This document shows, in pieces, positions 37,708 to 50,878 of a DNA stretch of 51,880 nucleotides. The stretch is from NCBI GenBank assembly GCA_044448365.1, contig JBIOGV010000001.1, positions 1 through 51,880 of the forward strand, read 5' to 3'. A program made the position numbers and the translations under genes. The stretch's first letter is position 1. The number at the start of each line of letters is the position of its first letter. This DNA is from Chitinophagales bacterium (GTDB lineage: Bacteria; Bacteroidota; Bacteroidia; Chitinophagales; Chitinophagaceae). The notes below the pieces were generated by a model. The model saw only the letters and a list, made by a program, of their open reading frames with translations. It searched no databases and had not been told where the DNA came from.

Positions 37708-38856
37708 ATGAAAGAGACAAAAGTATTTGATCAACCCCTGATGACTCAGGAATACTCTTTGTCCTACAAAAAAAATCCGGCAATACAGGATCTTTTTTTG
37801 CAGTTATTAAAGAATTATCCTGACGGATCAATCAGCATTATCGACAGGAATTTCAATTTTATTTATACTGACGGAGAGTTATACCAGCAATTAAAGATCG
37901 ATCCGGCTGGACTGATCGGGGAAAAAGTGTTTTCTATTTTTCCTTACTCACTTCACCAAAAGATTAAATCCGAACTATCAGAAGTTTTTCATGGAAATAT
38001 TGTTTCTGACTTTGAATTGTCTGATTGTTGTTTAAGACCTGATAGCTATGCCATGGAAGCATTCCCGTTACTGGAACCCAATAACTCAATAGATAAAGTG
38101 GGCATCATCATAAGCAACATTACCAGGCTCAAAAAAGTGGAGGGAGATTTACTAAGAGCTCTTGAAAAAGAAAGGGAACTCAGTGAATTAAAATCAAGGT
38201 TTGTGTCAATGGCTTCACACGAATTCAGAACTCCGCTTAGTACTATTCTTTCTTCTGCTTATTTATTGTCAAAATATGCAAAAACAGAAGACCAGGCAAA
38301 AAGGGAAAAGCATCTGGAAAGGATCATCTCTTCAGTAAACACGCTTACCGATACGCTGAATGATTTCCTTTCCCTCGGTAAAATCGAAGAAGGAAAAATA
38401 TCAGTCAACCCGGTTGAAATAGATGTCTGCGAACTGATAAACAATATCATTGAGGAAATCAAACCTATTCTAAAGGAAAACCAGACCATTGTATATAAAC
38501 ATACGGGTAAGGGAACAGTGAGAATGGATAAAGGCTTGTTAAGGCATATTATTTCCAATCTCCTTTCCAATGCTATAAAATTCTCCAATAAAAATTCTGA
38601 AATAGAGATCAGGACAAAAATAGATGCTGAATTTATATTGTCAGTTAAGGACCATGGTATAGGCATTTCTGTGGAAGACCAGGAACATTTGTCGGAACGG
38701 TTTTTCCGTGGTACTAATGCGGCAAATATCCAGGGGACCGGGCTTGGATTACATATCGTTTACCGGTATGCTGAATTAATGAACGGAAAAGTAGATTTCA
38801 GGAGTCAATTGGATGAGGGAACCGAATTCACTGTTATTTTTAAGGATCAACTTTAG
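37708..38856 (+). CDS. PAS-domain sensor histidine kinase (cytoplasmic)
   Basis: H-box SHEFRTPL, N-box NLLSNAIKFS and G-box GTGLGLHIV. No TM segments seen. Confidence 0.9.
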   Translation: MKETKVFDQPLMTQEYSLSYKKNPAIQDLFLQLLKNYPDGSISIIDRNFNFIYTDGELYQQLKIDPAGLIGEKVFSIFPYSLHQKIKSELSEVFHGNIVSDFELSDCCLRPDSYAMEAFPLLEPNNSIDKVGIIISNITRLKKVEGDLLRALEKERELSELKSRFVSMASHEFRTPLSTILSSAYLLSKYAKTEDQAKREKHLERIISSVNTLTDTLNDFLSLGKIEEGKISVNPVEIDVCELINNIIEEIKPILKENQTIVYKHTGKGTVRMDKGLLRHIISNLLSNAIKFSNKNSEIEIRTKIDAEFILSVKDHGIGISVEDQEHLSERFFRGTNAANIQGTGLGLHIVYRYAELMNGKVDFRSQLDEGTEFTVIFKDQL

Positions 38857-38917: not shown

Positions 38918-39973
38918 ATGAAAAAGATTTTGCTGATAGAAGACAATGATGACGTTCGCAATAATACTGCTGAGATACTGGAACTGGCCAATTACAAAGT
39001 CCTCACTGCAGAAAACGGTAAAAGAGGAGTGGAAATAGCTTTGAAAGAAAACCCCGATCTGATTGTATGTGATATTATGATGCCGGTATTGGATGGATAT
39101 GGAGTATTACATGCGCTTCAAAAAAATAAAGAAACAATGAATACGCCCTTTATTTTCCTGACGGCAAAAACTGAAAAAGCAGAGGTTAGAAGAGGTATGG
39201 AATTGGGCGCGGATGATTATATTACGAAACCATTTTCAGGCACGGAACTTCTAAATGCCTTAGATGGCCGCTTAAAAAAGGCAGAACTTTTAAGACAACA
39301 ATTTTCACAGGGACCTGTTCAAAAAAATGAAACAGAAAAAACCCTGGCAAAAGGTATGCTCAGGGAGCTGATTGAAGGGAGAAACATAAATAAATACAAA
39401 AAAAAGCAAATCATTTACTTTGAAGGCAACAGGCCTGCGAGATTGTTTTATATCCAAAAAGGCAAAGTAAAAACTTACAAAACAAATGATGATGGAAAAG
39501 AATTAGTAGTTGAATTATTGAACAAGGGAGATTTCCTGGGTTATGCAGCTTTGCTGGAAGGTGCGAACTACAAAGAAACGGCTGAAACAATAGAAGATGC
39601 TGAATTGGCCATTGTTCCAAAAGAAGATTTTGATGAATTAATGAATAATAGCCATGAAGCAGCACGAACTTTCATCAGGCTGCTTACAAAAAACATCCAG
39701 GAAAAAGAAGAGCATTTGGTAGGACTAGCTTATAATTCATTACGAAAAAAGGTAGCTACTGCCTTACTCGAGCTTGACGAAAAATATAACCAGGATTCAC
39801 AAGCAAACTTTTCTATAAACATCAGTCGTGAGAATTTAGCCACAATTGCCGGTACAGCTACTGAATCACTGATCAGGACACTTGCTGATTTTAAGAAAGA
39901 ACAGCTTATTGATATGGATCACGGGGTCATTACCCTTCTGAATAAGCACAAACTCGAAAACATGTTTAACTAA
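38918..39973 (+). CDS. Response regulator with receiver + cNMP-binding + Crp/Fnr-type HTH output
   Basis: REC motifs (EDNDD, CDIMMP, LTA, KPF), then a cNMP-binding-like beta-roll (FEGN...LFYIQKGKVK...GDFLGY) and a C-terminal HTH (ISRENLATIAGTATESLIRTL). Confidence 0.85.
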   Translation: MKKILLIEDNDDVRNNTAEILELANYKVLTAENGKRGVEIALKENPDLIVCDIMMPVLDGYGVLHALQKNKETMNTPFIFLTAKTEKAEVRRGMELGADDYITKPFSGTELLNALDGRLKKAELLRQQFSQGPVQKNETEKTLAKGMLRELIEGRNINKYKKKQIIYFEGNRPARLFYIQKGKVKTYKTNDDGKELVVELLNKGDFLGYAALLEGANYKETAETIEDAELAIVPKEDFDELMNNSHEAARTFIRLLTKNIQEKEEHLVGLAYNSLRKKVATALLELDEKYNQDSQANFSINISRENLATIAGTATESLIRTLADFKKEQLIDMDHGVITLLNKHKLENMFN

Positions 39974-40187
39974 TGATTCCATAAATAGTTTATCTGATCA
40001 GGGTCACTATTTTTTTATAGCCATCATTTTTTACTCCTCACCTCTGAAAGTAGATTTGATGCTGAAAGTAGCATATGAAGCGAAATAACCGGTATATCAA
40101 AAAAGGGGAACAGAATTCCATCCGGTTATTACCAATAAAAACCGGAAGTCTTCGGTTAAGCGATACAAGAGCTTCTCGACCGGGAAC

Positions 40188-40212
40188 AAAAAAAGGATGC
40201 ACCATCCTTTTA
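40188..40212. terminator. Intrinsic terminator hairpin flanked by an A-run and a T-run (bidirectional; stronger on the minus strand)
   Basis: AAAAAAAGGATG-CAC-CATCCTTTT. On the minus strand the stem is followed by T7. Confidence 0.55.
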
Positions 40213-40354
40213 TACAAAATCAATCCATAAAGCCAGGAAGTACGACCTGTTGAGACAGGAACTGACTATACACGATTCTTTGACCTGATTATTATGACTG
40301 CTAAAATGGCAAGATTTTCCACTGCCTTTGTTTATCAGGCCTGCCGGGTAATAA

Positions 40355-40753
40355 TCAATTTTCGGTAAAACAAATGTCGAGGAACCTGTTAAAATCCTTT
40401 TTAAGTTCAATAGAATTAGTATCCAAAATTCTTAATTCCTTGCTTAATCGTTTTATCCAATGATTTACCTGCTTTTCATAATGATCATTTATTCCGGGAT
40501 CTTCCAACAATGATCTTTCAAGTTTTGTAAGATCTTTCCACATAAGCCTGAACGTTTCATCTTGCCGCAAAAACTGATTTTGATATCCTTCTGCTATTTC
40601 CAGCAGATCTTCGGCTTTCCCGTTGCTATTCTTTAGTATTTCCACCAGTTTATCTTTTTGAAGAAGATTCTCATGTTGAAGGAATACCAGTGTTTTTTTC
40701 CATGATTCTATTTCCTGGATCGTTTGTTTTAATGTAAAATTCATTTGATTCAT
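40355..40753 (-). CDS. Hypothetical coiled-coil-like protein
   Basis: 132-codon ORF with an ATG start, 12 nt downstream of the 40766-40981 ORF. No family recognised. Confidence 0.45.
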   Translation of the reverse strand: MNQMNFTLKQTIQEIESWKKTLVFLQHENLLQKDKLVEILKNSNGKAEDLLEIAEGYQNQFLRQDETFRLMWKDLTKLERSLLEDPGINDHYEKQVNHWIKRLSKELRILDTNSIELKKDFNRFLDICFTEN

Positions 40754-40765
40754 GGGTGAGTAAGA

Positions 40766-40981
40766 TTATTTTTTTATTGTCTCCGGCATGTCCAGGTAGG
40801 CATTTTCCCGGCTATCACTGGTACTGTCCTGAAAATATTTAAAAAGTTTTCCTTTGCTTATTGAATCCGTTAGGGGAATGTTTGCCCGCGCAGATTGTAT
40901 AGAATCTTTACCAGAAAGAGATAAGAGGAGACCGGCATACACAATGATCCAGCCGATTGATATTTCAGAATGAAGTTTCAT
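40766..40981 (-). CDS. Hypothetical small membrane/exported protein
   Basis: 71 codons with an N-terminal hydrophobic segment. It pairs with 40355-40753. Confidence 0.35.
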   Translation of the reverse strand: MKLHSEISIGWIIVYAGLLLSLSGKDSIQSARANIPLTDSISKGKLFKYFQDSTSDSRENAYLDMPETIKK

Positions 40982-41080
40982 TTTCTGTCATCAAATTGTG
41001 GGCTTACTTACATAGTTAGTTTACCGGTTCAAAAATTAATTTATATACGCAATGATATTTTACCCGGACCATATATTCAA

Positions 41081-41092
41081 TGACTGCTATCA
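41081..41092. promoter_or_regulatory. FNR/CRP-like box TGAC-TGCT-ATCA
   Basis: In the divergent region between the 40981(-) and 41228(+) starts. Matches TGAY-N4-RTCA. Confidence 0.45.
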
Positions 41093-41227
41093 ATGAAAAA
41101 TCCGATTGTTATCAGAAAAAAACGATTGATTATTTCATCAATGATATATGTCAGATTTTTAAGTGAGGGTGGTCATTTTCCGGGCGGCCACTTTTAATAA
41201 TCTTGAAGCGAGTAAATTATTTATTAT

Positions 41228-41695
41228 ATGAAAGGGAGCAAACAAATGATTGAAACGCTGAATGCACTTCTATCTGATGAATTGACCGCGGTGAATCAAT
41301 ACATCGTTCATTCTGAAATGTGCCAGAATTGGGGATACAAACATCTTCACGACATAATCAGGCAAAGAGCTATTGGGGAAATGAAGCATGCTGAAAAATT
41401 GATTGAACGCATCCTGTTTCTTGAGGGCATTCCTTCTGTTGACAGACTCAATAAGATTGCCATTGGCAATAGCATTGAAGAGCAATTCAAAAATGACCGG
41501 GCAGCAGAACAGGAAGCCCTTGAAGCTTACAATAATGCTATCAACCTGGCTGTAAGCTGTAATGATGATGGTACAGCGGAACTATTTTGTTCAATCCTTG
41601 CTGATGAAGAAAACCATCTTGATTGGTTAGAAACACAACTTGAACAGATTCACCAGGTAGAGCTTCCAAATTATTTATTAGAGCAAATCGCCTGA
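41228..41695 (+). CDS. bfr: Bacterioferritin
   Basis: MKGSKQMIETLNALLSDELTAVNQYIVHSEMCQNWGY...EMKHAEKLIERILFLEG is a typical Bfr sequence. Confidence 0.9.
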   Translation: MKGSKQMIETLNALLSDELTAVNQYIVHSEMCQNWGYKHLHDIIRQRAIGEMKHAEKLIERILFLEGIPSVDRLNKIAIGNSIEEQFKNDRAAEQEALEAYNNAINLAVSCNDDGTAELFCSILADEENHLDWLETQLEQIHQVELPNYLLEQIA

Positions 41696-41947
41696 TTTAT
41701 TTTGACGGCAAACAGAGATTTTTCTGATAACCATCATTGTTTCAGCACAGCAGCCAAATGTACTTTTGCATGGTTTCAATTCGGATGAGCCGATTAAGCA
41801 GGAAAGTAGAGATGGCAGTTTAAAAGACAGTAAACTAGAAATCCGAAACAGGATAAAAACTGTTAGCTTAATCAGGACGAGGTCGGATTAAACAGGCGAG
41901 TGCAGAAGCACAGTAAAGAAAAGGCGATAAACTGCATGAGCCGTTTG

Positions 41948-41980
41948 CAAGGCAGGTTTTATTACGCCTGCCTTGTTTTT
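41948..41980 (+). terminator. Rho-independent terminator
   Basis: AAGGCAGG-loop-CCTGCCTT followed by GTTTTTAT, ~250 nt downstream of the bfr stop. Confidence 0.7.
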
Positions 41981-42068
41981 ATAGTAACTCAAAAAATGGT
42001 AACCTTCAGGTAATTTTTTTAATCCCAGTTCCAAATTATCATTTTTTCCTACCGGTCATTTTTTTCTT

Positions 42069-42080
42069 TGACCATCATCA
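42069..42080. promoter_or_regulatory. FNR/CRP-like box TGAC-CATC-ATCA
   Basis: About 100 nt upstream of the 42178 ATG. The same 12-mer occurs in inverse orientation at 43621-43632. Confidence 0.5.
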
Positions 42081-42177
42081 TTTCCGGGCAAAGGGAGTAA
42101 CTCTAATTTTGATATATGTTTTTAATCATGCATTTATGATATTGAAAAATTCGATTTAATAATTTTAAAATTTTTTT

Positions 42178-42891
42178 ATGAAAAGGACTTTATTATTGTT
42201 GGTTGCCGTTCTATCATTATATATGACTGGAATGGCCCAGGAAAGAAGAGCAAGTCCTGAGAAAAAGGGGTTTTTGATCCTTTCGGCTGGCCCATCGTTT
42301 CCTGTCGGTGATTTTAGTTCAACCGATTTTCTTAACAACAGCCAGGCTGCTTATGCAAAAACCGGATTTGCAATTGATCTCCACGGAGGGTATAATTTCA
42401 TCAAAAATTTTGGACTTGGTGGATCAATATTTTATTCCCATTATTCGTTTGATGAACAACGGCTAAAAGATCAATTAGTGGCAGCAGGTGCCCCGAGTGA
42501 AATGAATATCTCTGTGGATCACTGGCAGTATTATGGTTTAGTAGTGGGTCCGATAATAACGGGGAATGTTTCCACTAAAACGATTGTAGATTTTAGTCTA
42601 ATGACTGGTGTTGCCCGTGCCAATTCACCAAAAGCAGAAGTAAGTATCGCTGGCACTTCGGGGTCAACGGCCGAAGATTGGGCCACTGCTGTTCCCATGA
42701 AGGTGAGTGGCGGAATACGTTTTCAGGTTGGACAAAATGGCTATTTATTTACGGGGTTGGATTATATGTATATGGAACCGAAATTCAACTTCACTGCTTC
42801 AGGTGAATTGAACACTTCAGCAGAAAATGTTCCAGCCCGCCAAAAAATGACTTCCTTGAATTTCACAGTTGGTGCTGGAATCAGGTTCTGA
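42178..42891 (+). CDS. Outer membrane beta-barrel protein (OmpA-barrel/porin-like)
   Basis: Signal peptide, alternating strands, and a C-terminal ...FTVGAGIRF with terminal Phe. Confidence 0.7.
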   Translation: MKRTLLLLVAVLSLYMTGMAQERRASPEKKGFLILSAGPSFPVGDFSSTDFLNNSQAAYAKTGFAIDLHGGYNFIKNFGLGGSIFYSHYSFDEQRLKDQLVAAGAPSEMNISVDHWQYYGLVVGPIITGNVSTKTIVDFSLMTGVARANSPKAEVSIAGTSGSTAEDWATAVPMKVSGGIRFQVGQNGYLFTGLDYMYMEPKFNFTASGELNTSAENVPARQKMTSLNFTVGAGIRF

Positions 42892-42905
42892 GGATTTGGG
42901 CATCC

Positions 42906-42941
42906 AAAAAAAATACCCTTCGTTTTGAAGGGTATTTTTTT
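42906..42941. terminator. Bidirectional intrinsic terminator between convergent genes
   Basis: A-run, 9-bp stem ATACCCTTC/GAAGGGTAT, 5-nt loop, T-run. Confidence 0.8.
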
Positions 42942-43013
42942 GAAGCTTCTTTTCTTTTTAGCCAAATTGAATTTTAAAAATGAAAGTTGTTTAAAATATT
43001 TTTTGCTCTTTTC

Positions 43014-43499
43014 TTAGTCTCTCCTAAACAACCCGATCAGCTCTCCAAAACCAATAATATGGTCGTTCATTGCTTTTTCAAGATCATCTTTGTTTGAACT
43101 GACAGGAATATCAAGTTTACAATCCAGCGCATAAACCTTGAAAAAATACCGATGGGTTCCTTTGGGGGGACACGGACCTGAATAAATATGTTTGCCAAAA
43201 TCATTCATGCCCTGTATTCCGGGAGCTTCTTCTTCTTTCAGGTGATGTGTAATGGGAATATTCCACATCATCCAATGTAACCAGGTTCCAAGCGGTGCAT
43301 CGGGATCATCGACAATAATTGCAAGGCTTGCAGCTTTTTTGGGAATATGATCAATGTTCAATGAAGGATTCACATTTTTTCCATCACAGGTATATCGCCT
43401 GGGTATGAAATCATTCTGTTTAAACAATGCGGACGTAACATCAATTTTTTTATATGTTACCCCTGTCCTCTCTTCAGATTCAAAAGGATGATAGTTCAT
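43014..43499 (-). CDS. YbhB/YbcL family Raf kinase inhibitor-like (PEBP) protein
   Basis: DDPDAP...WLHW and GPCPPKGTHRYFFKVYALD motifs. Confidence 0.9.
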   Translation of the reverse strand: MNYHPFESEERTGVTYKKIDVTSALFKQNDFIPRRYTCDGKNVNPSLNIDHIPKKAASLAIIVDDPDAPLGTWLHWMMWNIPITHHLKEEEAPGIQGMNDFGKHIYSGPCPPKGTHRYFFKVYALDCKLDIPVSSNKDDLEKAMNDHIIGFGELIGLFRRD

Positions 43500-43620
43500 A
43501 AAAATTATTTGATAATTAGATAAAGATTTTGAAGTAGAGGTACTGCAATGGAAGTTTTAATTATTTACAAAAGAAGTTTATTAATCCGCAGTAATCAATG
43601 AGGGGAATCATCATTTTTTG

Positions 43621-43632
43621 TGATGATGGTCA
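43621..43632. promoter_or_regulatory. FNR/CRP-like box (minus-strand reading TGAC-CATC-ATCA)
   Basis: About 125 nt upstream of the PEBP ATG. It overlaps the palindrome ATCATCA-N7-TGATGAT (43607-43627). Confidence 0.5.
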
Positions 43633-43733
43633 TTTAAGGTATCAACTGGTGCATTTTTTAAAAATTGAAACACATCATTAAAATTATGATGCTGGCCTTA
43701 TTTTCAATAACAATGAGTACTGGCAAAAAACCA

Positions 43734-44051
43734 TCAATCAAGCAATGATTGCAAGTGTTCCAGGATTTCATGGGCCGATGAGATCCCATTTTTTCTCCAT
43801 ATCGCCTGCCCTTTATGAAAAATGATCAGGGTGGGTACTGTTTGTATATTATGAAATTCAGCTAACTCCTGTTCTTTCTCAACATCTATATTCAGAATGG
43901 CCGCTCTTTCACCGACTTTCTCTTTTACCTCCTGAAATATTGGTGCCATCAGTTTGCTGGGTTGCGACCATTCAGCAAAAAAATCAATTACAACCGGTCT
44001 GTTGCCCTGTATGTGTGATTCATAATTCATAAACAATTGTAGTAACTCCAA
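43734..44051 (-). CDS. Thioredoxin-fold protein lacking both active-site cysteines (WSQPSK instead of WCGPCK)
   Basis: VVIDFFAEWSQPSKLMAPIF...VPTLIIF follows the Trx pattern. The start is the TTG at 44051 or the ATG at 44030. Confidence 0.75.
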   Translation of the reverse strand: MELLQLFMNYESHIQGNRPVVIDFFAEWSQPSKLMAPIFQEVKEKVGERAAILNIDVEKEQELAEFHNIQTVPTLIIFHKGQAIWRKNGISSAHEILEHLQSLLD

Positions 44052-44110
44052 TAAATCAATTAACTAAAGTAGCCTCCTTCGTCAGTGATATTTCATAGCA
44101 GGATGCATTT

Positions 44111-44779
44111 TTAAAAAACGCCAATTTCTTCTTCAACAATCAACCTGTTATCTACTGTAGTTACACCGGGTGCCGGCCACACTGCATTTTCGGCATCTTC
44201 TTTTTCGGCCAATGATCTGACGATTCCTTTCAGAATTACTTTTGAGCCAATTATTTCTGCCGTGACCTTTTCAGCATCAATCGTTGCATGGCGGTGGAAT
44301 GCTGCGCTGATCTTCTTTTCTATATCCTTTGCTGCCACTTTCGGTTTAACAATGATAAAATTGAAAACATCCCGTACTCCCGGAAGGTTTTCAATAGCAG
44401 TAACAGCGGCTTTGCGTTGATATTCCCATTCAACATCACCCTCAAGTGTTACTGTTCCATTTTCGACCTTGATCCTGATCCTGTCTTCCATTACAGCCGT
44501 GTGTAACCTTAATGCATTGAGAACTGTTTCGGCAATTTCACTGTCCGTTTTTTTAAAGATTGGAGAAACGCCAACCTGAATGTTAGGGGCAACGGCCCTG
44601 ACACCGTATACTTTTCTGGCAGCTCTTTCTGCTTCCATCTTTTTTGTATACGTATCTACAATTCCTGAAAGGGTAACCACGCCATCTTTTACAGCCACTC
44701 CTATTTCTGACGCATTCAGTATAGGCTCCCAGTTAAGTTGGGCCATTACATTTTTTTGAATTTGATAATCGGTTTTCAT
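44111..44779 (-). CDS. BON domain protein (three BON repeats, OsmY-like)
   Basis: Repeated ...V.V.DG.VTL.G.V... modules. The ATG at 44779 is preferred (MKTDYQIQ...). Confidence 0.8.
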   Translation of the reverse strand: MKTDYQIQKNVMAQLNWEPILNASEIGVAVKDGVVTLSGIVDTYTKKMEAERAARKVYGVRAVAPNIQVGVSPIFKKTDSEIAETVLNALRLHTAVMEDRIRIKVENGTVTLEGDVEWEYQRKAAVTAIENLPGVRDVFNFIIVKPKVAAKDIEKKISAAFHRHATIDAEKVTAEIIGSKVILKGIVRSLAEKEDAENAVWPAPGVTTVDNRLIVEEEIGVF

Positions 44780-44866
44780 GATCAAGAATTTTAGTTACCA
44801 ATAAATTTTGATTCGAAACTATATCTATGATTATTTCCAATCAATGCCTGTTGTCACATTTAAGAA

Positions 44867-44878
44867 TGACAGGTATCA
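44867..44878. promoter_or_regulatory. FNR/CRP-like box TGAC-AGGT-ATCA
   Basis: About 90 nt upstream of the BON gene start. Confidence 0.45.
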
Positions 44879-44980
44879 GGAATAACGATTTCATAAAGGA
44901 TGTAAAATGATCCCAATAAGATGCTGTCAAACTGCGCTTCTTAATCATTAAAATATTCGTGAGGCGTTCAGCATTTAGAA

Positions 44981-45802
44981 CTACTCAAGGATAGAAAGAA
45001 CAGGGACACGGGGATGACGAATAAGTTGCTTCGATTTGCTTTTATGAAAAAGTCGCGCAAAAAATCCATATTTTGCCGGTATTGTCACAAGCAGGTCCGG
45101 ATGGTTTTGTTCAATATACTCATCAATAGCTTCTGTCACTTTGTCTTCATAAATAAAATGAAATTCAGGATTGAACTGTTCCAACTCATTTTGCAATGCT
45201 ATCGTACCGGCGGCATATTCCGGCTTATTTTGAAATTTTTTAACCACATTCACAATATCCAGTTTTGCATTAAATAGTTTTATCCAATCCTTCAGAAATT
45301 GCAAAGGCGTGATTTTTCCAGGTTCTCTTAAATCTGCGGCGAGTACAATTTTTCTGATGTTTTTATAAGAGGTTTGTTCAGGAACAATTAAAACGGGAGT
45401 TGAAATTCCATGTATAGCGGCCAAAGCGTGGTTTTCAGTAAACAAGTGTTCGATTGCTGTTGTTTTATCTGTTCCCAAAACAATGGCAAAGGCTTTTTTT
45501 TCCCGGGCTTCTTCCTGTAATAAGCCGGGTACAGATCCAATGGGTATTTTAGTATCAATTTTTATTTTATTTTTTACATGTTCTGCCAATTTATCCCTGA
45601 GTTTTTTGAGTTCTTCTTCCGAGTCTTCGATCATCTCATCGAAAGCATAACCGGATATGGGAATTTCACTGATAGTAACGGGCAGCTGTACTATATTTAT
45701 CAATGATAATTCTGCATTCATAGCTGCTGCTAAATCAGCTGCGTAGTATGCCGCATTGTATGAAACCGGGGAAAAATCTGTGGCCGCGATGATCGTTCTC
45801 AT
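44981..45802 (-). CDS. Universal stress protein (tandem USP domains)
   Basis: Two UspA-like halves (IIAATDFS..., KIVLAADL...), ~273 aa. Confidence 0.85.
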   Translation of the reverse strand: MRTIIAATDFSPVSYNAAYYAADLAAAMNAELSLINIVQLPVTISEIPISGYAFDEMIEDSEEELKKLRDKLAEHVKNKIKIDTKIPIGSVPGLLQEEAREKKAFAIVLGTDKTTAIEHLFTENHALAAIHGISTPVLIVPEQTSYKNIRKIVLAADLREPGKITPLQFLKDWIKLFNAKLDIVNVVKKFQNKPEYAAGTIALQNELEQFNPEFHFIYEDKVTEAIDEYIEQNHPDLLVTIPAKYGFFARLFHKSKSKQLIRHPRVPVLSILE

Positions 45803-45874
45803 AAACTTATTTTTTTGTAATTAAAAGTAGGCAAGACCTGGGAGATAAGAAATGATTTGAATTAAGGCCAAAAA

Positions 45875-45886
45875 TGATTGGGATCA
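45875..45886. promoter_or_regulatory. FNR/CRP-like box TGAT-TGGG-ATCA
   Basis: About 78 nt upstream of the USP start at 45802. Confidence 0.45.
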
Positions 45887-45922
45887 CACTCATTAAAAAT
45901 TCTTTTCTGATAGTTATTTTGA

Positions 45923-46408
45923 TCAATGGTACATAGTCAGCGGTGGAATTGAAGTGCTTTCAAACTTTCCGCTTTTTTCTTTCAAACAGATTTTGAATAC
46001 AATTCCCGGAATATCATTTAACCCATTTGAACCTTCTCCTGAAAATGGCCATGTTTTACCCAAATGGGTAGTAACACTTGAAGAAACGGGCAATCGCCTT
46101 TGGAGAAGGATCTTCAATATTTTTATTTTTTCTTCCTTATCATTTATTTCCTCAAACTCACCCCAGGTGATCACGCTTTTCCAATTGGCCATATCTTTCA
46201 TGTCATCAATCTGGAAACAAACCTTTGGATTCTTACGCATCATTTCCATCTTTTTGCCTTCATAAGTGTGACAATAGATATTGCAGCCATCATAGGCATA
46301 GCTGATCGGAACAACATATACAACATCGTTGTCATAACAACCTATGCGACCAACACATTGCTTTGAAAGCAGGTTTTCAATTTCTTCAGATGATAATTTC
46401 CCGATCAT
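45923..46408 (-). CDS. Pyridoxamine 5'-phosphate oxidase family (FMN-binding split barrel) protein
   Basis: MIGKLSSEEIENLLSKQCVGRIGC...VYVVPISYAYDG pattern. The ATG at 46408 is preferred over the TTG at 46426. Confidence 0.8.
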   Translation of the reverse strand: MIGKLSSEEIENLLSKQCVGRIGCYDNDVVYVVPISYAYDGCNIYCHTYEGKKMEMMRKNPKVCFQIDDMKDMANWKSVITWGEFEEINDKEEKIKILKILLQRRLPVSSSVTTHLGKTWPFSGEGSNGLNDIPGIVFKICLKEKSGKFESTSIPPLTMYH

Positions 46409-46660
46409 AAATTTTTTCTGAATCAAAATTATATTCTCTTCTTTATGGACTAAATGACGACTGTCAGAACTACTGCTGATTGTGATTTCTCCTTAAAAGT
46501 TTAGGCGTTTTCTAAGAAATATGTGCCAACAATCATCAATTTCAATGATGGTGCTCACGGTTTACTGGTCATCCTTTAAATACCTTCGGAAATATGAATA
46601 AAAATGAGTAAGGGAAAGTCCGAAACCTTTTTACAAAGCAGGCAATTAAATAATTGTTAT

Positions 46661-47302
46661 ATGAAAGCTCTGAAAAAAATCAGTGTTATTGCGGTGTTCT
46701 TGATTTCGCTGTATTGTTTACCCGGATGCAGTACTCCTTCCTATACGGCCTTTGATGTTCATTACACAAATCCTTTATGGGCTCCGCCTTATTATGAAGG
46801 TGTCAGGTATTACTATCTTCCCGATATTGAAGTGTATTACGATCTGACTGATGAAGAGTTTGCATACCTGGACAATGGTCAATGGTTTTTTTCGTCAGTA
46901 TTACCACCCATGTATAGTAACTATGACCTTTTTAATGGCTTTGTGATTGCTCTCAATGTGAATGTATTCCAGCCATGGAGGCATCACCAATATTATGTTT
47001 CTCACTATCCGCGCTATTACTATCACAGCTTTTACCGCAATGCAGATATTTCTAATCTGAGAGGCTTCAATGAAAATGAGCGCAAAGAGATCTATTGGAA
47101 ACAGGAAGAAAGAAACAGGATTAATGACTTACGAAAAAATTTTACACCGGAAAAGAAAAAGGAAATATCCGTTCAACCGCAGCAACCTGATTATCGGGGA
47201 AAAAAAATTGGTCATCCTGTTAAGGTAAGGCCTGAAATGAGGGAAAATAAGAACGGCAACAGAAGGCCGGGAGATCATTCTAATAAACCAAGACACGGTT
47301 AA
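46661..47302 (+). CDS. Hypothetical Tyr-rich lipoprotein with basic C-terminal tail
   Basis: The ATG at 46661 gives the lipobox LPGC. No family recognised. Confidence 0.55.
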   Translation: MKALKKISVIAVFLISLYCLPGCSTPSYTAFDVHYTNPLWAPPYYEGVRYYYLPDIEVYYDLTDEEFAYLDNGQWFFSSVLPPMYSNYDLFNGFVIALNVNVFQPWRHHQYYVSHYPRYYYHSFYRNADISNLRGFNENERKEIYWKQEERNRINDLRKNFTPEKKKEISVQPQQPDYRGKKIGHPVKVRPEMRENKNGNRRPGDHSNKPRHG

Positions 47303-47355
47303 ACAGCCAGGCCTTTAAGGCGATTTCCTGAAGCTTTTTATTTTCGAAAGAATGA

Positions 47356-47502
47356 GAAGAATTTTTAAGAATAGCTTCTTTGGTTCCTATTAAAAATGAA
47401 ACACAAACGTTCCCATTAAGCAAAACAAATGATGCTTTAGAAAGTTTCAGGAAAGGAAAAATTCAGGGAGCTGCGGTATTAGTAATGGATCGGATGCTTT
47501 GA
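47356..47502 (+). pseudogene. Remnant of the C-terminus of a zinc-type alcohol dehydrogenase (about 48 codons, no start)
   Basis: The translation EEFLRIASLVPIKNETQTFPLSKTNDALESFRKGKIQGAAVLVMD resembles the ADH C-terminal consensus (...FPL...N.A......GK..GRAVLV). An in-frame stop lies immediately upstream. Confidence 0.55.
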
Positions 47503-47537
47503 TGTGATGTTTAGTTTTGTTCCCTGAGTTAGTTGAA

Positions 47538-48326
47538 TCATCTGAACGCTTTTTCCATTTGCCTTTTCAATTCAAACGGCGACCATAAACCCGAAACCAT
47601 TATGCGTCTTATCGTAAATAGTGGTTCATTCGCGCTCGTCTTTCCTGACAACTGGAATGCCGCTTTAAGATTTCTTTTTTTTAATTCATGAATCGAAACC
47701 TCATTCCATACTCCATATGGGTAGGCAAAAAAATTGACCGGTTTGCCTGTTAATTTCTCAAGTTTCGATCCCGGCTTGCCAATTTGTTCTTCCCAGTCTT
47801 TTCCCGTGAGTGTAGTTATTTTTGGGTGATTCCGGGTGTGATTTCCAATCGTATGACCATCATCTGAAAGTTCTTTGATCTGAGCAGATGTTAGATAGTT
47901 TGACTTATCAATGCATACTGTCATTATAAAAAATACAGCCTTAAATCCATATTTTTCAAGGATTGTTTTTGCAATTGAAAAATCCTCCTCATGGGTATCA
48001 TCAAAACTCAGCAAAATCGGTTTTGAGGGTAAGCCAGCAGCAAGAGTTAAATACTTGTATAACTGATCAGGTAAAATTGAATGATAACCGCTGTCGTATA
48101 AAAGCTTTAATTGTGCATCCAGATGCGCTTCACTAATTGTCAGGAAATCTTCCCGTTTTGGATTTTTTTTAATGTTGTGATAACAGAGTACAGGCACTTG
48201 TTTATTAATTTCCTCAATTTTTTTTGCAACTGATTTTTTGGGTGAATTATTTTGTGCAGGCGGGTTTTTTTTATCAATCACCGGATATAAAATAAAAAGC
48301 GAAAAAAAAAGAAGAATCATTTTCAT
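47538..48326 (-). CDS. Polysaccharide deacetylase (NodB homology) family protein
   Basis: LSFDDTHEEDF and GNHTRNHP motifs. The ATG at 48326 lies 1 nt after the upstream stop. Confidence 0.85.
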   Translation of the reverse strand: MKMILLFFSLFILYPVIDKKNPPAQNNSPKKSVAKKIEEINKQVPVLCYHNIKKNPKREDFLTISEAHLDAQLKLLYDSGYHSILPDQLYKYLTLAAGLPSKPILLSFDDTHEEDFSIAKTILEKYGFKAVFFIMTVCIDKSNYLTSAQIKELSDDGHTIGNHTRNHPKITTLTGKDWEEQIGKPGSKLEKLTGKPVNFFAYPYGVWNEVSIHELKKRNLKAAFQLSGKTSANEPLFTIRRIMVSGLWSPFELKRQMEKAFR

Positions 48327-48327
48327 T

Positions 48328-48963
48328 TTAACCAACTTTTTTCATTTCTCTTCTTAATCTTTCAAGGTAATAGATAACTTCATTGTCAGTCACCTGTTCG
48401 AAGTTTTCATAAAAACTATCTACGCCGGAGAATATTTCAGGTTCGAGAACAGATACAACATCATCAACTTCCTTACTTAACTTTTGTATCGCATCAGCAG
48501 AAGCAACGGGAACAGCAATCACTATTTTTGAAGGTTCTTTTTTCTTCAACATTCTCACTGTTACCAGTAAAGTATTCCCGGTCGCTATTCCATCATCAAT
48601 TACAATGATTGTTTTCCCTTTCCAATCTTTGACTTCTTCATCCTCAGAAAATTTGGGATACATTTTTTTCAGACTCCTGCGTATCCGGTCGATTTCTTCA
48701 TCAACATATTCCTGTGACGCTCCCGGGTCAGGGATCACGAATTCATCTGTCAGGCTAACAGCGCCAATAGCATATTCTTTATTCATCGGGTGCCCCAGTT
48801 TTTTTACAAGGATCAGATCCATCGGAAGATCCAGTTCTTTTGCTACTGTATATGCAACAACCACACCTCCCCTGGGTACAGCGAGGATGATCCCGGGACT
48901 GTCCTTGTATTTTCTTAATTTTTTTGCAAGCTGCAAACCTGCATCAATTCTATCATGAAACAT
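48328..48963 (-). CDS. Phosphoribosyltransferase family protein
   Basis: PRPP-binding motif IIVIDDGIATGNT. Confidence 0.85.
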   Translation of the reverse strand: MFHDRIDAGLQLAKKLRKYKDSPGIILAVPRGGVVVAYTVAKELDLPMDLILVKKLGHPMNKEYAIGAVSLTDEFVIPDPGASQEYVDEEIDRIRRSLKKMYPKFSEDEEVKDWKGKTIIVIDDGIATGNTLLVTVRMLKKKEPSKIVIAVPVASADAIQKLSKEVDDVVSVLEPEIFSGVDSFYENFEQVTDNEVIYYLERLRREMKKVG

Positions 48964-48972
48964 ATATTGATA

Positions 48973-49637
48973 TTAATAGGTCAACAAAGCCCTTGTTAAT
49001 GGTTGTAAATACTTTTTGAACCAATTACCTGCTTTTTCACATACAAGTCTCATTTTCCCATTCTCTTCAAATAAATGCGAGGCGCCTTCAATCACCTCAG
49101 TTTTTTTTCACAAATCAATTGTGCATAGGCTTTTTTGTTCAGATCTAAAACTTCCGGATCAAGGCTTCCTACGATCAATAAAGTGGGAGCTTTTACACCT
49201 CTCAATGATTCCATAACCAGGTCAGGCCTTCCACCACGTGAAACGATAGCTTGTATATTTGGTAAAGATGCTCCAGCCTTTAATGCGGATGCAGCGCCTG
49301 TGCTGGCGCCAAAATATCCAATACTTAAATGACGTGAGGGTTCGAAATTTTCAATCCATTTTGTTGTATCGATTAACCTGTGCGTTAACAATTCAGTATT
49401 AAACCGATTGTAAAAATGATCGTCTTCCTCTTTTGTGAGAAGATCGAATAAAAGAGTTGCAAAATTATTTTTGTGAAAATAGTCAGCAACAATTTTATTC
49501 CTGGGGCTTAACCGGCTGCTTCCACTCCCGTGTGAAAAAATAATAATGCTTGTTGCTTTTGGTGGGATGTTCAATTCACCTTTTAGTGAAGCTTTTGAAA
49601 GCAGCACTTCCACTTCACTGTGATAGCGGAATTCCAT
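48973..49637 (-). pseudogene. Dienelactone hydrolase family protein interrupted by a -1 frameshift in an A8 run (T8 on the plus strand, 49101-49108)
   Basis: The N-terminal 181 codons end at 49092. The next frame continues TEVIEGASHLFEENGKMRLVCEKAGNWFKKYL..., which is the expected catalytic-His C-terminus. One extra A restores a 221-aa ORF. Confidence 0.75.
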
Positions 49638-49703
49638 GATTTTCTTTTTTCAAAACTATTTATTAAACGGATCAATGGAAATGATGATCATTAGCATATT
49701 CTT

Positions 49704-49715
49704 TGACGGCGGTCA
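49704..49715. promoter_or_regulatory. FNR/CRP-like box TGAC-GGCG-GTCA (perfect palindromic halves)
   Basis: About 72 nt upstream of the hydrolase-operon ATG (49637). Confidence 0.45.
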
Positions 49716-49773
49716 TCGATGATAATCTTATACCAGTTAACCCGTAATAAGTAATTATAAACTCAATAATCTT

Positions 49774-49785
49774 TGACGACAATCA
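49774..49785. promoter_or_regulatory. FNR/CRP-like box TGAC-GACA-ATCA
   Basis: About 76 nt upstream of the USP ATG at 49856. Confidence 0.45.
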
Positions 49786-49855
49786 TTGAAACTGTTGTTT
49801 CCGGTCATTCAATATTTCTATCATTAACAGTATTTTAGATATGAAATTTTTCAAT

Positions 49856-50680
49856 ATGAAAAAGATACTCCTGGCTTTTGACGGGACTAACTTCTCCGAA
49901 GGAGCTTTTGAATTTGCAAAACGAATGAATGAACAATCGCCTATACTTGTTGTTGGCGTTTTTCTTCCACAGATCAATTACGCGAATGTCTGGAGCTATG
50001 CGGAAGGAGTAGCAGGATCTTTATTTATACCACTCCTGGAGAAAGAAGATACAATTGCGGTGCAGAAAAATATTGCTGAGTTTGAATCCCTTTGTCAGAA
50101 GAATAATATGGAATACAGAACTCACAGGAATTTTTCTGATTTTGCCTTACCTATGCTCAAAAAGGAAACGAGATTTGCCGATTTGTTAATTATAGGAAGT
50201 GAATCGTTTTATGAAAATCTTGGCATCAACCAACCTAATGAAAGTTTGAAGGACACATTGCATGATTCCGAATGTCCTGTATTGGTTGTACCGGAAATAT
50301 TTGAATTTCCAGAGAGTAATATTCTCACCTACAACGGTACCGATGATTCAGTTTATGCCATCAGGCAATTCACTTACCTGTTTCCTGAATTGTGCAAGAA
50401 TAAAACCTTGCTTGTATATGCAAAAGAAGAGCATGAAAAAGAGTTCCCGGATGTGGTGTACATAGAAGAATTAGCGGCCAGGCATTTTCCGGATCTTACT
50501 TTGTTCAGGTTGCCTGCAAATCCGAAACAATTCTTTCACAAATGGGCAAGCGAAAAAAAAGCGTCTGTTTTGATCAGTGGGGCTTTCAACCGGTCCATTT
50601 TTTCCCACATGTTTAAGAAAAGTTTTGTTGCGGATGTCATAAGGGATCATAAATTACCTGTCTTTGTGGCTCACAGATAG
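49856..50680 (+). CDS. Universal stress protein (tandem USP domains)
   Basis: MKKILLAFDGTNFSEGAFEFA... and a second half ending ...KLPVFVAHR. An alternative ATG lies at 49841. Confidence 0.8.
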   Translation: MKKILLAFDGTNFSEGAFEFAKRMNEQSPILVVGVFLPQINYANVWSYAEGVAGSLFIPLLEKEDTIAVQKNIAEFESLCQKNNMEYRTHRNFSDFALPMLKKETRFADLLIIGSESFYENLGINQPNESLKDTLHDSECPVLVVPEIFEFPESNILTYNGTDDSVYAIRQFTYLFPELCKNKTLLVYAKEEHEKEFPDVVYIEELAARHFPDLTLFRLPANPKQFFHKWASEKKASVLISGAFNRSIFSHMFKKSFVADVIRDHKLPVFVAHR

Positions 50681-50878
50681 AAATAATTGCCTGGGTTATA
50701 AAAGCAGGCAATCGGCGTCATTTTCATATCTATTCTCCTAAGTGGGACAAACGTTACGATTATTTCTTAGCAAATAAAACCGGATCTCTTCTTTATTTGA
50801 TAACAATCACTTTTATCCGTGACCATTTTCATAATTATTCTTAGAAAAAAAGAATAAAATTCGTTTATCATTTAATGC

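Follow-up and report, generated by a model that had tools for sequence, protein, structure and literature searches.

A short palindromic box recurs upstream of one stress-related gene after another in a 51,880-nt stretch of Chitinophagales DNA (contig JBIOGV010000001.1; the whole stretch is called the window here), raising the question of what these boxes are, what forms their functional unit, and which protein reads them. The initial annotation listed seven TGAY-N4-RTCA 12-mers and judged their recurrence non-random. All seven are found at the positions it gave, including the one at 43621, which is the reverse complement of the one at 42069. In the whole window the pattern TGAYNNNNRTCA is found 16 times, compared with 4.5 times in dinucleotide shuffles (maximum 10; 0/100 shuffles reach 16). 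Twelve of the 16 occurrences lie in the cluster intergenic DNA of 39974-50878 (3054 nt, ~3.05 kb), where the Markov-1 expectation for TGAYN4RTCA is 0.26 and 0/5000 simulations reach 12. The remaining 8585 nt (~8.6 kb) of intergenic DNA in the window contains none, and the 40.2 kb of coding DNA only four. Five exact boxes (39995, 41142, 41725, 46455 and 50798) were absent from the earlier list. The boxes are confirmed as genuine, and the observation is stronger than first reported: the presence of CRP/FNR-type operator boxes before almost all transcription units in the cluster is supported by enrichment, confinement, conservation and a fixed distance to the -7 element.

The unit of function is the pair, not the single box. 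The single boxes proposed before do exist, and every box in the window, except that at 39995, has a partner starting exactly 22 bp (approximately two helical turns) away, often with 1-2 mismatches. Pairs of exact boxes number 29 at 22-bp spacing versus at most two at any other spacing, and a partner with at most one mismatch lies at +/-22 for 86-92 of 385 boxes, compared with 1-4 at other offsets. The consensus box of the tandem is aTGAYnnnnRTCAt. Matches of at least 12 bits to the tandem PWM all fall within 41081-50831 of the window (shuffled windows give 0-1), and comprise 12 tandem operators, one before each transcription unit, while a thirteenth, at 39995, is decayed. We found no published description of such a paired-box system in the literature.

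A perfect TAnnTTTG element starts 23 nt past the proximal box in 55/149 tandems and 24 nt past it in 7/149, with at most one occurrence at each other offset. Since mapped flavobacterial promoters have the -7 box at -12 to -5 (PMC9723704), the 23-nt offset would centre the proximal box at ~-41.5 and the distal box at ~-63.5. No conserved -33 element is present in the tandem promoters, the positions between box and -7 element being without information, which suggests that these promoters depend on an activator. The predicted layout is class II activator geometry. Alternatively, the tandem could be a repressor or dual-function operator, with binding at -47 to -36 and -69 to -58 blocking polymerase or its UP/-33 contact until a signal relieves repression. 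The proximal box does cover the expected position of a -33 element, and some CRP/FNR proteins repress from overlapping sites. However, the -33 element is missing altogether and not just covered by the box, which is the mark of promoters that need an activator; class II contacts require the rigid -41.5 phasing seen in 62/149 sites, while steric repression allows variable positions; and in some contigs two divergent promoters share one tandem symmetrically. We consider repression improbable, and activation the better reading of the geometry.

The operators in the window, and one transcript, are as follows.

39995..40058, plus strand: decayed operator, with an exact distal box (39995-40006), an off-register proximal box (TTATAGCCATCA, 40015-40026, spacing 20) and a -7 box (TAGATTTG, 40051-40058)
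41050..41114, minus strand: operator/promoter of the 40981-40355 operon (distal 41103-41114, proximal 41081-41092, -7 41050-41057)
41142..41205, plus strand: operator/promoter of a bacterioferritin-like gene, 41228-41695 (distal 41142-41153, proximal 41164-41175, -7 41198-41205)
41703..41768, plus strand: operator/promoter of a non-coding transcript (distal 41703-41714, proximal 41725-41736, perfect -7 41761-41768)
41774..41992, plus strand: ~220-nt candidate for a regulated small RNA, with an intrinsic terminator hairpin at its end
42047..42111, plus strand: operator/promoter of a 237-aa putative outer-membrane protein, 42178-42891 (weak distal 42047-42058, exact proximal 42069-42080, perfect -7 42104-42111)
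43568..43632, minus strand: operator/promoter of the PEBP gene, 43499-43014 (distal 43621-43632, proximal 43599-43610, -7 43568-43575)
44814..44878, minus strand: operator/promoter of the BON-thioredoxin operon, 44779-43734 (distal 44867-44878, proximal 44845-44856, -7 44814-44821)
45822..45886, minus strand: operator/promoter of the tandem-USP gene, 45802-44981 (distal 45875-45886, proximal 45853-45864, -7 45822-45829)
46424..46488, minus strand: operator/promoter of a PNPOx/Nim-like gene, 46408-45923 (weak distal 46477-46488, exact proximal 46455-46466, perfect -7 46424-46431)
46524..46588, plus strand: operator/promoter of a 232-aa protein, 46604-47302 (distal 46524-46535, proximal 46546-46557, -7 46581-46588)
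49651..49715, minus strand: operator/promoter of the hydrolase-phosphoribosyltransferase-polysaccharide deacetylase operon, 49637-47538 (distal 49704-49715, proximal 49682-49693, perfect -7 49651-49658)
49774..49838, plus strand: operator/promoter of the second USP gene (distal 49774-49785, proximal 49796-49807, -7 49831-49838)
50798..50862, plus strand: weaker operator of mlaE, 50879- (distal 50798-50809, proximal 50820-50831, -7 50855-50862)

The distances from box to start codon measure ~67-133 nt, roughly the ~70-145 nt claimed earlier. The bacterioferritin-like gene is served by 41142/41164 and not by the box at 41081, which belongs to the divergent 40981 operon. This operon encodes a 71-aa and a 132-aa protein, the latter from the family most often found among regulated neighbours of the regulator described below. 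The boxes at 46524 and 46546 escaped the exact pattern because each carries one mismatch. For the second USP, a start at ATG 49856 is likely from the implied TSS near 49843 and agrees with the homologue N-terminus MKKILLAFDG. A search for RNA-seq runs from the window or from two cultured relatives gave none. The PEBP operator is the top-scoring tandem of the window. Upstream tandems are found for 12/26 USP homologues in other loci and for 7/10 PNPOx/Nim-like homologues elsewhere. The mlaE operator (20.7 bits, with a poor -7 box containing two mismatches) is the least certain member, because none of three MlaE homologues in other loci has a tandem.

Boxes are kept in orthologous promoters in which the flanking DNA has diverged. 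In the BON promoter, both boxes and the -7 element are kept in locus L001 against a diverged background (a phylogenetic footprint), and alignment of the decayed 39995 operator with its equivalent in L001, a perfect 22-bp tandem, reveals a 2-nt spacer deletion. The promoter of the non-coding transcript and its downstream sequence are also conserved in L001. The candidate small RNA (77% identical to L001, the terminator stem showing compensatory changes) contains no ORF longer than 41 aa, matches no Rfam family, and has a third copy in L134. Could the recurrence nevertheless be due to chance, base composition or a dispersed repeat (MITE or REP-like)? The window is AT-rich (~38% GC), TGAT and ATCA are common words, and the 12-mer TGACCATCATCA is present twice. 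This explanation is already refuted, by the simulations, by the sites themselves, in which conservation is limited to the eight core positions and the -7 element and both spacers and flanks vary freely, so that they are not copies of one element, and by the 188 composite promoters in 80 Bacteroidota loci and the window versus 0-1 in shuffled sequence, although the enrichment in those loci, chosen via regulator orthologues, is partly by design. The boxes are moreover kept in orthologous promoters of genomes where the regulator is only 53-77% identical, at the protein level, to that of the window.

The reader of the boxes is probably encoded at the head of the cluster, where a Crp-type regulator was noted earlier. 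The Crp module is indeed present, and the description is refined here to a response regulator with a receiver domain and a cognate PAS kinase.

37708..38856, plus strand: soluble PAS-HisKA-HATPase sensor kinase (Pfam PAS_4, HisKA, HATPase_c), the presumed partner of the regulator
38918..39973, plus strand: response regulator of 351 aa (Pfam Response_reg, cNMP_binding, HTH_Crp_2), the proposed box reader

The regulator combines REC, a cNMP-like domain and a Crp-HTH; a homologous kinase lies directly upstream of it in 69/80 loci. Across 13 orthologues no variation is seen in the receiver residues D9, D52, T/S82 and K104 or in the recognition helix TATESLIRTL. The invariant receiver residues, the HisKA and HATPase domains of the kinase and the adjacency of the two genes support a functional two-component pair. 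Alignment with CAP structures (E = 2e-15) indicates a common domain fold, but the cAMP-contacting residues E72, R82 and S83 of CAP are replaced (by Y, K/E and E), and the protein has no N-terminal Cys cluster and a single Cys overall. A cAMP- or Fe-S-type CRP/FNR protein was rejected on the basis of the domains and the CAP alignment, which identify a receiver-Crp response regulator. The CAP E181/R185 (FNR E209/R213) pair reads the TGA core and is retained in the recognition helix, while Ile replaces FNR Ser212, a substitution that fits the missing outer T of the motif. Of the FNR/CRP consensus core invoked in the initial annotation, the inner TGAY/RTCA positions hold and the outer T/A is not shared; likewise, TTGAC is found in three window boxes and is not a family feature: among 172 sites, 80% have A or C directly 5' of TGA and 13% have T.

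The association between boxes and regulator holds in both directions. At least one composite site is present in 68/80 loci, and the sites peak less than 2 kb from the regulator gene. In an unbiased, pattern-first metagenome scan (120 matches listed, 689 kb), a full-length REC-Crp orthologue is found on 12 of the 120 contigs listed by DNA pattern alone, compared with roughly 0.15-0.3 expected for a single-copy gene. The sites might instead be genuine CRP/FNR activator sites read by a paralogue elsewhere in the genome (e.g. a FixK/FNR-like protein lacking a receiver), with the neighbouring response regulator just another regulon member or a binder of something else. The TGA-N6-TCA core is common to many CRP/FNR family members, the kinase-regulator operon of the window has no upstream tandem, and four of the 120 listed contigs carry only a receiver-less Crp homologue (28-32% identity), so proteins besides the REC-fused one can be associated with the operator. 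Against this stand the co-localisation and the excess of full-length orthologues, the invariance of the recognition helix in parallel with that of the motif, and the lack of another Crp-family gene in the window; composite sites also precede the kinase-regulator operon itself in several related loci. A paralogous reader is thus unlikely, though less so than repression, and the adjacent response regulator is preferred.

The proposed regulated set in the window comprises USPs, BON, PEBP, bacterioferritin, thioredoxin, the PNPOx/Nim-like protein, the hydrolase-PRTase operon, the outer-membrane protein and the candidate small RNA. In relatives, the genes behind the sites include ccoS/fixS, a fixI-type ATPase, ccoNO, hemN (TIGR00538, 440 bits), cytochrome c, Hsp20, USPs, Rrf2 and ScdA/RIC; cco and hemN genes are not found in the window. 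Most likely, the regulon is of a low-oxygen and dormancy type and is shared by many related bacteria, and from gene content alone we infer that low oxygen may be the signal. With a probability of about 0.7, the paired operator would be read by the adjacent phospho-activated response regulator in a low-oxygen circuit that resembles FixLJ-FixK but is reduced to a single two-component step. The soluble kinase would phosphorylate the regulator, leading to cooperative occupancy of both boxes, each a half-operator for a dimer of the CRP/FNR-family DNA-binding module. The cNMP-like domain would serve in dimerisation. At the tandem, the receiver domains would probably bridge two dimers into a tetramer, and RNA polymerase would be recruited by the proximal dimer.

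Among known systems, the FNR/Anr/FixK2 anaerobox (TTGAT-N4-ATCAA, class II, -41.5) shares the palindromic TGAY-N4-RTCA core, the Glu/Arg pair of the recognition helix, a proximal site centred at ~-41.5 and overlapping targets (ccoNOQP/fixNOQP, fixGHIS, hemN, USPs). The system described here differs in its unconserved outer T/A, with A or C usual before TGA, in its obligatory-looking pairs of sites, in the Bacteroidota -7 element TAnnTTTG, and in having a receiver domain instead of an N-terminal Cys cluster. E. coli CRP class II/III promoters resemble it in domain fold and in the combination of a -41.5 site with an upstream helper site, but CRP retains the cAMP contacts, and its tandem sites are spaced at least ~30-50 bp, not 22 bp.

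The Mycobacterium DosRST dormancy regulon and Burkholderia cenocepacia lxa show a similar gene content, including multiple USPs, Hsp20/alpha-crystallin, a BON/phospholipid-binding protein, PNPOx-type flavoproteins, a phosphoribosyltransferase and a hydrolase. FixK control via a TGAT...ATCA site was proposed for lxa, a locus activated by low oxygen (PMC12973609). DosR, however, is of the NarL type and has another motif, and lxa relies on separate FixLJ and FixK proteins; the likeness looks like convergent content under different regulator architectures. In the FixL-FixJ to FixK cascade of rhizobia, Caulobacter and Burkholderia, a PAS histidine kinase likewise feeds a phospho-relay ending in a CRP/FNR-type activator of high-affinity oxidase and stress genes. 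Unlike FixL, the kinase here has a PAS domain without detectable sequence similarity to heme-PAS oxygen sensors, and in this Bacteroidota lineage the receiver and the FixK-like module form one polypeptide, with no intermediate transcriptional step.

In the 51.9-kb window the box pattern TGAYNNNNRTCA has 16 matches, where dinucleotide shuffles predict 4.5 and never exceed 10. When genes were called crudely from long ORFs and the matches sorted by location, 12 of the 16 fell in intergenic DNA of the 39974-50878 stretch (3054 nt), where a Markov-1 model predicts 0.26 and none of 5000 simulations reached 12. The initial annotation had listed seven of them (41081, 42069, 43621, 44867, 45875, 49704 and 49774), all of which recur at these positions, and had overlooked five exact copies (39995, 41142, 41725, 46455 and 50798). 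It had also asked whether the motif is equally dense in unrelated DNA; within the window it is not, with no box in the remaining 8585 nt of intergenic DNA and four in the 40.2 kb of coding DNA. A dispersed repeat as the source of the boxes was ruled out because only the core positions are conserved.

The cluster is headed by a kinase and a regulator, followed by two genes for small proteins:

37708-38856, plus strand, soluble PAS-HisKA-HATPase histidine kinase
38918-39973, plus strand, regulator of 351 amino acids (receiver, cNMP-binding-type domain and Crp-type HTH)
40355-40753, minus strand, 132-aa protein of no known family
40766-40981, minus strand, 71-aa protein of no known family

Pfam and NCBIfam returned nothing for the 132-, 71-, 237- and 232-aa proteins, and only a weak lactonase-like match for the 181-aa hydrolase. 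The window (∼38% GC) encodes a T9SS-sorted protein, and the nearest relatives of its proteins are in Chitinophagaceae and other Bacteroidota. It holds no other Crp-family gene, and its remainder is unrelated to the cluster, including two large sensors: a 1841-aa protein with Y_Y_Y, three GAF, HisKA, HATPase and receiver domains (5251-10776, plus strand) and a 1189-aa protein with a Reg_prop beta-propeller, Y_Y_Y and HATPase (18764-22333, minus strand).

The single box had been taken as the unit; the boxes are real, but the unit is a pair starting 22 bp apart. In 80 genome loci chosen through the regulator (orthologues of 53-77% identity, with 10-kb flanks), 29 pairs of exact boxes are 22 bp apart, and any other distance occurs at most twice. 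With one mismatch allowed, a partner is found at +22 or -22 for 86-92 of 385 boxes, and at other offsets for 1-4. In the window, each exact box except that at 39995 has a partner at 22 bp, either exact or with 1-2 mismatches. A tandem PWM trained on other genomes only gave 11 tandems of at least 12 bits, all within 41081-50831, compared with 0-1 in shuffled windows; a twelfth (42047/42069) comes from the mismatch criterion and is absent among these PWM matches. Each transcription unit in the cluster has its own predicted operator, with two per divergent intergenic region (starts of the two boxes are given):

41081/41103, minus strand, 40981 operon
41142/41164, plus strand, bfr (bacterioferritin-like protein)
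41703/41725, plus strand, non-coding transcript
42047/42069, plus strand, putative outer-membrane protein
43599/43621, minus strand, PEBP
44845/44867, minus strand, BON-Trx (BON-thioredoxin operon)
45853/45875, minus strand, USP (tandem USP)
46455/46477, minus strand, PNPOx (PNPOx/Nim-like flavoprotein)
46524/46546, plus strand, 232-aa protein
49682/49704, minus strand, hydrolase-phosphoribosyltransferase-polysaccharide deacetylase operon
49774/49796, plus strand, second USP
50798/50820, plus strand, mlaE (weak)

Among the seven boxes first listed, those at 41081 and 42069 are proximal to the promoter and the other five distal.

The tandems are phased with the Bacteroidota sigma-A -7 element. 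A perfect TAnnTTTG starts 23 nt past the proximal box in 55 of 149 tandems and 24 nt past it in seven, and any other offset occurs at most once. In mapped flavobacterial promoters TAnnTTTG occupies -12 to -5 (PMC9723704), which together with the 23-nt spacing places the proximal box at -47 to -36 (centre -41.5) and the centre of the distal box at -63.5. The matrix of 172 oriented sites reads aTGAYnnnnRTCAt - 8 free - TGAYnnnnRTCAT - 22 free - TAnnTTTG, with no information at the expected place of a -33 element; perfect distal boxes (123) outnumber perfect proximal ones (79). By this computed geometry, an activator site near -41.5 appears to replace the upstream promoter element, and the architecture, as read from sequence, combines an activator-dependent class II promoter with a helper site upstream. 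Action of the tandem in repression is unlikely, because the -33 element is missing and the phasing is rigid.

Composite promoters, defined as a tandem with up to two mismatches plus a -7 element with up to one, number 188 in the 80 loci and the window, against 0-1 in Markov shuffles. Taken with the simulations and the restriction of conservation to the core, this excludes chance or a dispersed repeat as the origin of the pattern. The predicted transcription starts leave short leaders (∼9-30 nt). A look-up of sequencing runs, RNA-seq or DNA, came back empty for the window and for two relatives, a Chitinophaga pinensis MAG and the cultured Niastella vici. The PNPOx-like gene probably starts at ATG 46408 rather than TTG 46426, since its -7 box overlaps the latter, and for the second USP ATG 49856, in agreement with the homologue N-terminus, is more probable than ATG 49841. 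In four metagenome contigs (L084 12093-12188, L085 695-848, L117 4416-4511 and L158 3428-3523) one tandem has a -7 box 23 nt off on both sides, so that one operator may serve two divergent promoters; several of these two-sided tandems adjoin an Rrf2-family regulator gene.

Of the 14-bp FNR/FixK palindrome TTGAT-N4-ATCAA, the inner 4+4 positions agree with the boxes. The outer left base is A in 47%, C in 33% and T in 13%, and the outer right base is T/G instead of A. A base preference at the nominally free N4 positions is hinted at: the second N of the distal box favours A in 106 of 172 sites. The identical 12-mer TGACCATCATCA is found at two operators (42069-42080 and 43621-43632), and spacers similar to its own (CCATCATCA, CCACCATCA) recur in the Chitinophaga loci L045, L054 and L037.

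The regulator belongs to the CRP/FNR superfamily (Pfam cNMP_binding 5.7e-22, HTH_Crp_2 4.9e-14), with a beta-barrel followed by a winged HTH; residues ∼155-345 match 2gau, 4ev0, CAP, FNR, NtcA and FixK2 in the PDB. A PDB search found no solved structure combining its domains, and NCBIfam holds no model naming it. HMMER alignment to CAP puts its TESLIR opposite RETVGR, so that the Glu and Arg of CAP E181/R185 (FNR E209/R213) are kept, CAP R180 becomes Thr and the position of FNR Ser212 is Ile. In CAP and FNR this Glu/Arg pair recognises the TGA core, and the outer T is recognised by FNR Ser212. The kept pair and the Ile therefore agree with a motif that retains TGA and not the outer T. All 13 orthologues compared share the recognition helix TATESLIRTL without change, and among the peptides of the regulator AGTATESLI was automatically picked as one of the two best conserved.

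Its input differs from that of the classical members. CAP Gly71-Glu72 and Arg82-Ser83 align to G-Y and K-E(-T), so that the cAMP contacts E72, R82 and S83 are all exchanged. FNR ligates its [4Fe-4S] cluster through an N-terminal cysteine cluster and a central Cys; here a Response_reg domain forms the N-terminus, and the single Cys (C51) is within it. The regulator is thus not a cAMP receptor, nor is it an Fe-S FNR, and its input would have to come through the receiver. D9, D52, T/S82 and K104 of the receiver are invariant in the 13 orthologues, and a HisKA-HATPase kinase is adjacent in 69 of the 80 loci. In a search for a FixL-type heme-binding PAS, with its proximal His and FixL Arg residues, residues 1-158 of the kinase matched no PDB sequence below E = 0.29; the alignment of 70 orthologous kinases has the S-box pattern generic to PAS domains, and the window's kinase departs from it. 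The regulator has more than 8000 homologues.

Conservation in orthologous promoters, which the initial annotation had called for, is seen ahead of the BON gene: in L001, the locus of another genome, both boxes, the -7 element and the start codon are kept and the flanks have diverged. Across loci, tandems precede homologues of the USP273 type in 12 of 26 cases, the USP279 type in 7/14, PNPOx in 7/10 and PEBP in 3/4. At least one composite promoter is present in 68 of the 80 loci, with a peak less than 2 kb from the regulator gene.

The first ORFs behind the 188 composite promoters were clustered and annotated (counts are genome loci plus metagenome contigs where two are given). The families include the 132-aa family (22), PNPOx (7), CcoS/FixS (16 + 6), FixI-type P-type ATPase (7 + 3), USPs (17 + 13), Hsp20 (11 + 3), the kinase (7) and the regulator (3 + 2), along with fused CcoN-O, HemN (TIGR00538, 440 bits), cytochrome c, Rrf2, YceI, DoxX, DUF892, ScdA/RIC, CBS and an AhbD-like radical SAM enzyme. 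The presence of kinase and regulator genes behind composite promoters indicates autoregulation. The 132-aa family, the commonest gene behind a composite promoter near the regulator (22 loci), is usually convergent or adjacent, and the protein could be an accessory factor of the regulatory system. High-affinity oxidase and assembly genes and oxygen-independent heme synthesis are classical FNR/FixK targets, and the USPs, Hsp20, BON and PRTase-hydrolase genes recall the mycobacterial DosR regulon. The Burkholderia lxa locus likewise resembles the latter content (PMC12973609).

As an unbiased check, metagenome contigs were scanned with the DNA pattern alone. At least 120 contigs (689 kb) were selected, with the same families downstream of their composite sites; among those listed, 12 encode a full-length receiver-Crp orthologue and 10 the kinase. 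Among the matches listed, 12 orthologues in ∼0.15 genome equivalents is far above the yield of a single-copy gene. The boxes may instead be read by a receiver-less paralogue: four of the listed contigs carry such homologues only, and the window's own kinase-regulator operon is without an operator. These four (L135, L142, L143 and L187, selected by the composite pattern only) encode Crp-type homologues without a receiver, with 28-32% identity to residues 169-351 of the regulator, two of them adjoining AhbD-like radical SAM genes. A conventional Crp/Fnr protein may act on the same operator in other lineages.

The unpaired box at 39995 lies directly after the regulator stop codon (39995-40230, plus strand; L001 11065-11200) and is, judged against L001, the distal box of an operator that has decayed: the equivalent place in L001 has a perfect 22-bp tandem, and the window has a 2-nt spacer deletion. 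The -7 element and the first ∼30 transcribed bases are still conserved, and a conserved start, TATGAAGCGAAAyAACC, comes after the -7 box. A conserved 51-aa ORF behind this box (40075-40230) was considered and rejected, as the protein match with L001 ends after the first 5-8 codons despite DNA conservation. Behind the 41703/41725 tandem, which has a perfect -7 box, the predicted ∼220-nt transcript (41774-41992, plus strand) has counterparts in L001 (12452-12674) and L134 (3472-3703). It lacks a credible ORF. Conserved hairpins with A-rich loops (GCWGTTTAAAAGNCAG, CAGRATAAAAACTG) lie within it, and at its end is a terminator hairpin in which the genomes differ by compensatory changes. An Rfam scan of the whole window gave no family at gathering score. 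The transcript is a candidate small RNA of the regulon.

What the comparisons show is the arrangement of the DNA sites, how it is conserved and how it goes with the regulator; DNA binding, regulatory direction, oligomeric state and signal are inferred in the following scheme. In the inducing condition, which the regulon content suggests is low oxygen or redox stress, the PAS kinase would phosphorylate the receiver of the regulator. Crp-type dimers would then fill the distal box, the stronger of the two, and the weaker proximal one two helical turns off would be filled cooperatively, plausibly through receiver-receiver contacts that produce a dimer of dimers; the proximal dimer at -41.5 would recruit sigma-A polymerase to promoters lacking a -33 element. 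A further-reaching reading, to which we give a probability of roughly 0.45, is that REC-fused CRP/FNR proteins are a previously uncharacterised, phylum-wide class of Bacteroidota response regulators, in which phosphorylation leads to a dimer of dimers on a 34-bp bipartite operator (boxes 22 bp apart, at -41.5/-63.5), forming a one-step hypoxia/dormancy switch that in aerobic Bacteroidota replaces the proteobacterial FixLJ-FixK or FNR and also drives a conserved small RNA.

To our knowledge, oxygen-limitation sensing in aerobic soil, freshwater and wastewater Bacteroidota is essentially undescribed. For Flavobacterium psychrophilum, one study reported that oxygen limitation induces the cbb3 oxidase and named no regulator (PMC9723704). 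The circuit proposed here is directly testable, comprising a sensor kinase, an unusual receiver-Crp regulator, a precisely defined 34-bp operator with its promoter geometry and a regulon list. The system is widespread, and the composite pattern is specific enough for annotating regulon members in metagenomes. Such strict 22-bp pairing is unusual for the CRP/FNR family, and it suggests how a receiver domain could come to govern a DNA-binding module of Crp type. Full-text literature searches found no paper on the receiver-Crp regulator or this operator in Bacteroidota; the idea of a box and its regulator is classical, while the receiver-Crp regulator, the bipartite operator and the Bacteroidota hypoxia/stress regulon are without description in the literature searched. 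The proposed system would work in the manner of class II activation by FNR/FixK and of the FixLJ-FixK cascade, but differs from them in that the sensor input is a fused receiver, the operator is an obligatory-looking 22-bp tandem without the outer T/A, and the promoter type and lineage are different.
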